A stretch of 64,000 nt of DNA from Escherichia phage Pu-Krd-SF3 (PQ249397); one strand, 5' to 3'. Counted from the stretch's first letter, positions 36,439-37,192 are shown. Program-made: numbers and translations. Notes: generated by a model from the letters alone, not told the origin.

Positions 36439-36452
36439 ATTAGCCTCTGTAG

Positions 36453-36460
36453 TATTTATA
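36453..36460 (-). promoter_or_regulatory. Late-promoter TATAAATA upstream of gene 19 (second copy at 36514-36521)
   Basis: Plus strand TATTTATA at both positions. Confidence 0.5.
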
Positions 36461-36522
36461 TATCCCTATGTTTAACCTAGGGCATATAGAATTAAAGAAT
36501 TAAGGATATAGTGTATTTATAT

Positions 36523-36540
36523 GGCCTGTCGAAACAGGCC
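36523..36540 (-). terminator. Stem-loop GGCCTGT-CGAA-ACAGGCC downstream of the HNH ORF
   Basis: Perfect 7-bp stem. Confidence 0.5.
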
Positions 36541-36547
36541 TTTAGAA

Positions 36548-37105
36548 TCATTCTAGTAAATCCCAAAGATCTACGCTATTTCTTTTTGACTTTTCTCGGT
36601 TAGATTCCCAAGTGATTATTTCTAAATTTTTTACGCTTGCTATAATTTCCGGCGGAATTAAATTATCAAATCCATATTTGATAGATACTTTATGATCGAG
36701 TTGATAAGCACCTTCTACACCGCACACTCCTATTTTATCAGCATTCGGCCATTTTGACCAAATTTTTCTTATTTTAGCTGACTTAGTTATAGAATGAACT
36801 CTACTAGCATATAATGCAAACTCTTTTCTTTTACCAGTCCATCGAGGATGTTTATCGCCTCTTTGCCATGGTCTGCTTATTCCGGATTGAACTTCCGAAT
36901 TTTTAATAGCAACTTGTTTAATGCTGCATTTTCTACACGCATGTGTGGGTGTTCTATTTAAAAGCTGAATGCTTCTACTAAATTTAATACCGCACAAATC
37001 ACATTTAGCGTCAACTATTTTATTACTATTCTTTGGCATTAATTCTATTGGAACAGATACTGTATCATGATATGATACTTCATATCCTAGAATTGCCGAC
37101 CACAT
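36548..37105 (-). CDS. Free-standing HNH endonuclease (putative homing endonuclease) between genes 18 and 19
   Basis: 185 aa from first ATG (track ORF starts on TTG and runs through a hairpin); HNH-like core YQLDHKVS...NLEIITWESNREKS; Cys pairs CDLCG and CRKC; no equivalent gene at this position in T4 as recalled. Confidence 0.6.
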   Translation of the reverse strand: MWSAILGYEVSYHDTVSVPIELMPKNSNKIVDAKCDLCGIKFSRSIQLLNRTPTHACRKCSIKQVAIKNSEVQSGISRPWQRGDKHPRWTGKRKEFALYASRVHSITKSAKIRKIWSKWPNADKIGVCGVEGAYQLDHKVSIKYGFDNLIPPEIIASVKNLEIITWESNREKSKRNSVDLWDLLE

Positions 37106-37192
37106 TTTTGAATGATTTCTTGGTTTTATTGTAACAAACTTAGAAATAATCACTTGTTTCCTCGAGAATAGGGGCCGAAGCCCCACAATCAA

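Follow-up and report, generated by a model that had tools for sequence, protein, structure and literature searches.

The Cassette Between the Tail Sheath and Tail Tube Genes

Escherichia phage Pu-Krd-SF3 (PQ249397) carries a small cassette with a gene for a putative HNH-type homing endonuclease between gene 18 and gene 19, which encode the tail sheath and the tail tube, respectively. We analyzed this cassette in its context, a stretch of DNA of 64,000 nucleotides (nt) that is referred to as the window in the following. The window belongs to Tequatrovirus, with a 100% match to Escherichia phage Pu-Krd-SF4 and matches of 95–99% to hundreds of Tequatrovirus genomes. The minus strand is the coding strand for all genes around the 18–19 region. 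A preliminary description, made from the sequence alone, had noted a minus-strand open reading frame (ORF) between genes 19 and 18 and had read it as a homing element. The ORF is indeed present, and the relevant features of the region are:

36549–37191, minus strand: inserted cassette of 643 nt, delimited by alignment with T4 and RB5
36548–37153, minus strand: ORF of 201 amino acids with GTG start at 37153 and TGA stop, putative HNH-type homing endonuclease, PHROG 5104
36869–37153, minus strand: N-terminal domain, about residues 1–95, with a four-cysteine zinc module (C51, C54, C73, C76)
36590–36697, minus strand: HNH-like catalytic core, D153-H154...N176-L177...N185-R186-x-K188
37160–37163, minus strand: Shine-Dalgarno sequence GAGG, 6 nt upstream of the GTG start, as read from the sequence
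37171–37184, minus strand: cassette-borne hairpin GGGGC-UUCG-GCCCC, closely following the stop codon of gene 18 and separated by 7 nt from the downstream ribosome-binding site, without a U-tract
37244–37280, minus strand: hyper-polymorphic patch of 37 nt at the 3' end of gene 18, 52–88 nt upstream of the insertion point
37193–39172, minus strand: gene 18 (tail sheath), upstream neighbor of the cassette and its probable target gene
35947–36438, minus strand: gene 19 (tail tube), downstream neighbor of the cassette
36523–36540, minus strand: native spacer hairpin GGCCUGU-UUCG-ACAGGCC, outside the insert and also present in insert-free T4
36514–36521, minus strand: native TATAAATA, late-promoter consensus, directly 3' of the native hairpin, present in T4 without the insert
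36453–36460, minus strand: second native TATAAATA, just 5' of the ribosome-binding site of gene 19, likewise found in insert-free T4

The preliminary description had noted that T4 has nothing in this position and had suggested that the insertion point be defined by alignment with an insert-free junction. T4 does lack the ORF, its 18–19 spacer comprises only 116 nt, and the alignment with T4 yielded the cassette boundaries given above. The cassette takes the place of 7 nt (ACGGTGC) located just 3' of the T4 gene 18 stop codon; it is missing from T2 as well as from T4. All sequence downstream of position 36548 also occurs in insert-free T4. Two GC hairpins had originally been considered to bracket the inserted element, with two copies of TATAAATA between it and gene 19. 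Both copies of TATAAATA do lie there, and the hairpin at 36523–36540 also exists; all three are present in insert-free T4, belong to the native spacer and are not the edges of the cassette. The upstream GC hairpin was likewise found, although at 37171–37184 and not at 37165–37180. A 30-nt stretch around the native hairpin (36517–36546) folds with −12.5 kcal/mol (z −4.3) and a 26-nt stretch around the cassette-borne one (37165–37190) with −11.3 kcal/mol (z −2.35); the 14-mer forming the latter precedes the homologous gene in identical form in Shewanella phage Thanatos-2 and in RB5. As the cassette follows the gene 18 stop codon and lies upstream of the native hairpin and the late promoter serving gene 19, both structural genes are left undisturbed.

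The ORF had first been given as 185 amino acids, a form that starts with ATG and has no ribosome-binding site. We extend it to 201 amino acids starting from GTG, since this start is preceded by the GAGG site, the annotation of Pu-Krd-SF4 gives the same coordinates, about 45 homologues begin with MIISK exactly at this point, and the combination of Shine-Dalgarno sequence and GTG recurs in equivalent form in the cassettes of Dhaka-, Karam-, Gapriver- and Klebsiella-type phages. A GTG start is used in at least six lineages of homologues. The same four cassettes contain early-type promoter-like sequences (GTTTAC-N17-TA(T/C)AAT is matched in two of them, and visual inspection suggested the remaining two), and in each case hairpin, Shine-Dalgarno sequence and GTG start come next. 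Within the insert of the window, no TATAAATA is located upstream of the ORF, and matches to sigma-70-type promoters or terminators do not exceed the expectation from shuffled sequences. We also considered sequestration of the ribosome-binding site by the cassette hairpin, as for mobE, and rejected it: the predicted fold shows none, and in stability the 96-nt region does not exceed shuffled sequence. Four copies of the allele present in the window were compared and all of them are intact. As they differ mostly at synonymous sites (synonymous to nonsynonymous differences of 14:2, 14:3 and 11:3), the ORF is under purifying selection.

Two Alleles and an Empty Site in Tequatrovirus

We surveyed about 500 phage records with a T4-type 18/19 junction. 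The gene is not universal at this position: the site is empty in 382 records, including T4 and T2, and 76% of close relatives do without the gene. The allele of the window is carried by 69 records, including T6, with 95–100% identity, and a second allele, termed RB3-type here, by 48 records, including RB3 and RB5. Across empty, window-allele and RB3-type records, the flanks are 95–100% identical.

The two alleles have the junctions, the hairpin, the ribosome-binding site and the first eight codons in common. Their last ~230 nt are ~93% identical, whereas the central ~370 nt are unrelated, such that ORFs of 49% identity reside in backgrounds that are 97–99% identical. The N-terminal domain of the RB3-type protein is 37% identical to that of the window allele and 58–60% identical to those of the Klebsiella and Shewanella types, while its C-terminal domain is closest to the window allele. 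With its foreign N-terminal domain, and a C-terminal domain and ends common to the window allele, the RB3-type allele is a recombinant in which the putative DNA-binding domain was exchanged.

The Encoded Protein Is a Candidate HNH Nuclease

The HNH-like core (DH...N...N) and the two cysteine pairs mentioned in the preliminary description are readily apparent as D153-H154...N176...N185 and as C51/C54 and C73/C76. The N-terminal domain that contains the cysteines resembles treble-clef zinc modules and matches the N-terminus of PHROG 12131 ('homing endonuclease'); we infer that it serves as the DNA-binding and specificity module. As a whole, the protein matches PHROG 5104 ('unknown function') with an E-value of 8.7e-82. 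In 72 diverse relatives (25–42% identity), D153, H154, N176 and N185 are the sole invariant columns, and D58, H59, N81, N90 and K93 are invariant in an alignment of C-terminal domains. Confident AlphaFold2 models (predicted local distance difference test score, pLDDT, of 86.8 for the whole protein and 86.1 for residues 98–201) predict a beta-beta-alpha topology in which the DH pair closes one strand, N176 opens the next and the helix after that contains N185. Foldseek retrieved no significant match from the PDB, neither for the whole model nor for that of the C-terminal domain; the best structural matches, with sequence identities of 8–18%, are 4h9d and 5h0o, small phage-type HNH nickases, the latter being the HNH endonuclease of phage GVE2.

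Curated Pfam and NCBIfam models, including HNH_3, do not match, and scans of the window protein against Pfam, NCBIfam and PADLOC revealed no nuclease or defense family. Remote matches emerged from the relatives. PHROG scans of 36 of them, reduced to their C-terminal domains, gave matches to the 'endonuclease VII' PHROG for 17 of the 36 domains (best E-value 3.5e-6) and also to several 'HNH endonuclease' PHROGs (best 1.3e-5); no annotated PHROG family other than these two kinds was hit. The most recurrent nuclease matches in Pfam, HNH_4 in 8 of the 72 relatives (9.5e-4) and HNH in 4 of the 72 (3e-3), were all sub-threshold. In the PDB, searches with phmmer and profiles gave nothing beyond zinc fingers, mS66 and, spuriously, leucine-rich repeats. 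The last of these matches involve the segment IPPEIIxxIxNLxxxxWxxN (36590–36650, residues ~168–188) and the structures 4u08 and 4u06 (E 0.005–0.06), and we judged them a coincidence of composition and motif. Alignment with the HNH segment of SpCas9 by hhalign placed YQLDH against YDVDH with a probability of only 11%. In distant relatives, the same C-terminal domain is fused to NUMOD3, helix-turn-helix arrays, zinc ribbons or DUF7487, and this build of nuclease plus DNA-binding parts is typical of homing endonucleases. No curated HNH model matches, the sequence profiles derived from the PDB included; the HNH assignment is founded on motif, fold and remote matches. Taken together, these lend moderate, though not conclusive, support to the C-terminal domain being a divergent HNH / His-Me finger nuclease.

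The failure of the curated models, together with the predominance of zinc fingers among the PDB sequence matches and the fact that some records label the gene 'head morphogenesis protein' or 'holin', would also suit a zinc-finger nucleic-acid-binding protein devoid of nuclease activity, i.e., a regulator or assembly factor for sheath or tube in which D-H...N...N is due to chance or structural needs. We consider this very unlikely: the residues without variation coincide exactly with the HNH catalytic set, His-Me nucleases are all that fold and PHROG matches indicate, the C-terminal domain occurs in changing combinations with DNA-binding modules that typify homing endonucleases, and most close relatives dispense with the gene.

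Even less credible, in our view, is a nuclease associated with packaging, of the HK97 gp74 or GVE2 type, that would assist the terminase from a locus between gene 17 (terminase) and gene 20 (portal). This idea draws on the best structural matches, 4h9d and 5h0o, which we take to belong to the terminase-associated class of HNH proteins, and on the location of the gene two genes away from gene 17. A terminase partner would be expected to be universal within a phage group, yet 382 close relatives including T4 and T2 lack the gene; the protein moreover has an extra N-terminal domain that looks sequence-specific and is swapped between alleles. Headful packaging of the T4 type is not known to need a factor of this kind.

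A Patch of Gene 18 Linked to the Cassette

The hyper-polymorphic patch in gene 18 was characterized by comparing 13 sequences, four from window-allele phages, one of the RB3-type and eight from Tequatrovirus phages with an empty site, and additionally by BLAST identity bands. Searches of IMG/VR and JGI metagenomes for junctions contributed only 15 and 5 loci, respectively. One 30-nt bin of gene 18 contains 14 variable sites, compared to 0–4 in the other bins. Over the final 100 nt of gene 18, the divergence between window-allele carriers and empty-site phages amounts to 13.2 per 100 nt and that among the carriers to 1.0; in all other 100-nt bins, which extend to 1 kb on the upstream and 600 nt on the downstream side, none of the three kinds of comparison can be told from the others. 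According to the BLAST identity bands, the cassette-type patch appears to be present in all sampled carriers of the window allele.

The changes within the patch are synonymous save one, which converts I-T-L to I-Q-L; the peptide concerned hardly varies among T4-like phages. At that codon, Q, V, L or S is frequent in the cassette lineages of other genera and T is found in their empty-site lineages, with one exception, the counts being small and the lineages non-independent. The patch is a candidate for a target site, an immunity variant or a co-conversion tract. Its haplotype in the window reads TATAAATT at 37264–37271 (minus strand), i.e., 7 of 8 positions of the late-promoter consensus ~110 nt upstream of the ORF, where the T4 haplotype has CATTAACT; judged by this resemblance, TATAAATT could act as a promoter for the cassette.

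Relatives in Other Phages

A profile search of 1.84 billion cluster representatives yielded 6394 relatives at E ≤ 0.001 and 1641 at E ≤ 1e-10, which points to a large family without a name. A homologue is located directly 3' of the sheath gene in eleven further phage groups that we examined: Dhakavirus, Karamvirus, Gaprivervirus, Krischvirus, RB5, a Klebsiella phage, Shewanella phage Thanatos-2, Sinorhizobium phage phiM12, Aeromonas phage AS-zj, Acinetobacter phage AbTZA1 and a VR26-type contig. In every context examined, family members follow or interrupt the sheath gene, the exception being Acinetobacter phage 133 with a relative inside rnlA. Outside Tequatrovirus, too, near relatives of carriers lack the gene (L022 and L024 have an empty site as opposed to the occupied L023, and so do L019 and L020 as opposed to L006, Enterobacter phage KMB20). 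RZ and VR26 are members of one phage group, yet identity to the window protein is 59% for the allele of the former and 33% for that of the latter. These two alleles and the 49%-identical ORFs in near-identical Tequatrovirus backgrounds argue against simple vertical descent.

Individual loci are informative. In KMB20 (OL828291), tandem paralogues (2501–3902 and 4398–4979) lie between genes 18 and 19; they are 62% and 32% identical to the window protein, and the second one lies 3' of a TATAAATA. The same phage has an extra ORF of unannotated function between gene 19 and the portal gene. The 18/19 homologue of Acinetobacter phage vB_AbaM_3014 (PV081574, 119154–119740) is broken, gives a two-piece match and is annotated as two hypothetical proteins; this copy may be decaying. 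In phage 133 (L030, NC_015250, 2169–4246), an ORF of 273 amino acids sits between the annotated rnlA-A and rnlA-B, and its C-terminus is 47% identical to the HNH-like core of the window protein over 58 amino acids (E 2e-13). A note in the record mentions 'ORF19.1 of Enterobacteria phage T6', which appears to be the T6 copy of the gene studied here. In Campylobacter phage CJLB-13 (L031, MW373745, a record marked UNVERIFIED, 1158–3978), the sheath gene itself is split by an insert of ~1.6 kb between the equivalents of T4 gp18 residues 515 and 517. Two ORFs of the insert (2082–2954 and 2908–3249), possibly one frameshifted gene, end in the HNH-like domain of the window protein, and the Acinetobacter homologue is 54% identical to the CJLB-13 sequence over ~65 amino acids. 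No group I intron was detected around the Campylobacter or phage 133 relatives in Rfam at E ≤ 0.1. Adjoining the split sheath gene of CJLB-13, an ORF of 610 amino acids (4055–5887, minus strand) with repeated K-x-x-E-T-N-L-x-K-Y/F-G-like motifs may be another homing-endonuclease-like gene.

The recurrence at one locus in eleven phage groups, a divergence of the ORF that roughly parallels that of gp18 and gp19 in several genera, and the purifying selection on the ORF would also be in line with an old accessory nuclease gene that has resided 3' of the sheath gene since the T4-like ancestor, was often lost (e.g., in T4 and T2) and was kept for some benefit to the phage such as the exclusion of competitors' markers or recombinogenic nicks. 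This explanation, which overlaps with homing and is compatible with it, strikes us as unlikely. It does not sit well with the divergent ORFs that share identical junctions in Tequatrovirus, with the disparate alleles of RZ and VR26, with relatives inside rnlA and inside a sheath gene, or with a linked flank of merely ~100 nt.

A Probable Free-Standing Homing Endonuclease Gene

The general picture that emerges is that the cassette is probably a free-standing homing endonuclease gene of the HNH / His-Me finger type, whose product would cleave DNA and promote its own spread. The homing interpretation given in the preliminary description is supported by comparative evidence, namely the presence/absence polymorphism, the incongruent alleles, the relatives that split genes and the linked patch in gene 18. 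Several observations weigh against it. Apart from the silence of the curated HNH models, the insert lacks a recognizable promoter of its own. About 20% of the empty-site phages, e.g., RB51, have the cassette-type patch as judged by BLAST identity bands, and linkage over 50–90 nt is expected for any tightly linked marker and could by itself produce the patch pattern. Finally, the occurrence of family members at one locus in very distant phages, with a divergence that partly tracks gp18, fits an old resident gene that was lost repeatedly.

If the cassette is a homing endonuclease gene, its mode of action may be envisaged as follows. Late transcripts of gene 18 that pass the UUCG hairpin would allow low-level expression of the ORF via the weak GTG start. 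In a mixed infection, the N-terminal zinc module would attach to a conserved sequence that lies within or close to the 3' end of the cassette-free phage's sheath gene, and the C-terminal HNH domain would nick or cut at the bound site. Recombination-dependent repair from cassette-bearing genomes would then copy the cassette and, along with it, at most about 90 nt of the adjoining gene 18, and this flank would carry a variant of the site that resists cleavage. A more far-reaching proposal, which we put forward only tentatively, is that the patch and the exchange of threonine for glutamine mark the recognition site, that the RB3-type allele, with the same ends but a zinc domain of foreign origin at the N-terminus and another patch haplotype, represents a specificity switch in an arms race between endonuclease and target, and that the lineage tracks the sheath gene in Straboviridae, Sinorhizobium phages and Campylobacter Eucampyvirinae.

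Annotation and Significance

The gene is labeled inconsistently in public records (among them MW883059, NC_054907 and PQ657792): as 'holin' in SYGD1, as 'putative head morphogenesis protein' in T6, as 'type II restriction endonuclease' in Klebsiella Roth phages, and elsewhere as 'hypothetical'. A few recent GenBank records use 'HNH endonuclease' or 'homing endonuclease', and in RB5, RB6 and RB10 the gene is unannotated. Pfam has no model for the family, and the PHROG it belongs to bears no function. Our literature searches did not find a paper on the gene. T-even phages serve as the model system in the study of free-standing homing endonucleases. Homing endonuclease genes of T4-related genomes were tabulated in 2010, and that census has no 'other HNH' or 'hef-like' entry for RB3 and Acj61 (PMC2993671); as both possess a member of the family, it seems to have been overlooked there.

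The cassette is not a new kind of system; it is very probably an uncharacterized example of a well-known kind of phage parasite. Its recognition as a member of a probable HNH nuclease family would nonetheless correct many annotations. The two Tequatrovirus alleles, which have common ends, different putative DNA-binding domains and each a linked short gene 18 haplotype, offer a natural case for studying the co-evolution of specificity and target immunity. Since the 18/19 junction tolerates an insert of 0.64 kb, it is also a candidate payload site in T4-like phages.

Comparison With Known Systems

Small phage HNH nickases work with terminases and bind a metal via cysteines and histidines around the motif. 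Those that resemble our model most closely (Gme HNH from Geobacter, 4h9d; HNH from phage GVE2, 5h0o) are single-domain proteins, whereas the window protein has a separate N-terminal zinc module and contains W182 and S184 in place of the usual cysteine pair. With I-HmuI and I-TevIII, it has in common an HNH motif, DNA-binding parts that contain zinc fingers, and phage hosts. These two are encoded in introns; here, no intron was detected, and Rfam gave no match even at the split-gene locus of Campylobacter phage. I-HmuI is not among the fold matches listed.

Hef of phage U5 is a T-even free-standing endonuclease that is reported to lack similarity to known homing-endonuclease families (PMC3322345, PMC2988022). 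The cassette recalls it by description, as a putative free-standing endonuclease gene of a T-even phage. Of two phages listed as hef-like (PMC2993671), Acj9 is absent among the Acinetobacter matches listed, and phage 133 was matched only via the ORF that splits rnlA. The gene-splitting relatives in phage 133 and CJLB-13 recall mobE of phage Aeh1, which splits its host gene nrdA. In contrast, the cassette of the window is located after a stop codon and does not split any gene, and the gene-splitting relatives share with it only the C-terminal domain.

A close parallel is provided by the Mob genes of T4. MobA and MobE are free-standing HNH homing endonucleases of T-even phages (PMC2988022). Like these, the gene described here is a free-standing ORF in a spacer between conserved essential genes, occurs sporadically among near-identical phages, and combines an HNH-type catalytic motif with a modular build of nuclease and DNA-binding parts. 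By analogy, its product would be expected to nick a nearby conserved gene and to spread by recombination repair (PMC2988022). The differences are equally clear. There is no detectable sequence similarity to Mob proteins, HNH_3 does not match at E ≤ 1 and neither does any other HNH model in Pfam. A tblastn search retrieved ~240 matching records, about half of which are T4-type and correspond to the 117 cassette carriers among the ~500 T4-type genomes; many T4-type genomes carry mob genes. The locus, 18/19, is not one of Mob genes, and the order of domains is reversed, with the nuclease at the C-terminus here, whereas in Mob proteins the binding region is C-terminal and joined to an HNH domain (PMC2988022). 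Judged by these likenesses and differences, the cassette would be Mob-like in its way of working while standing outside the Mob family.

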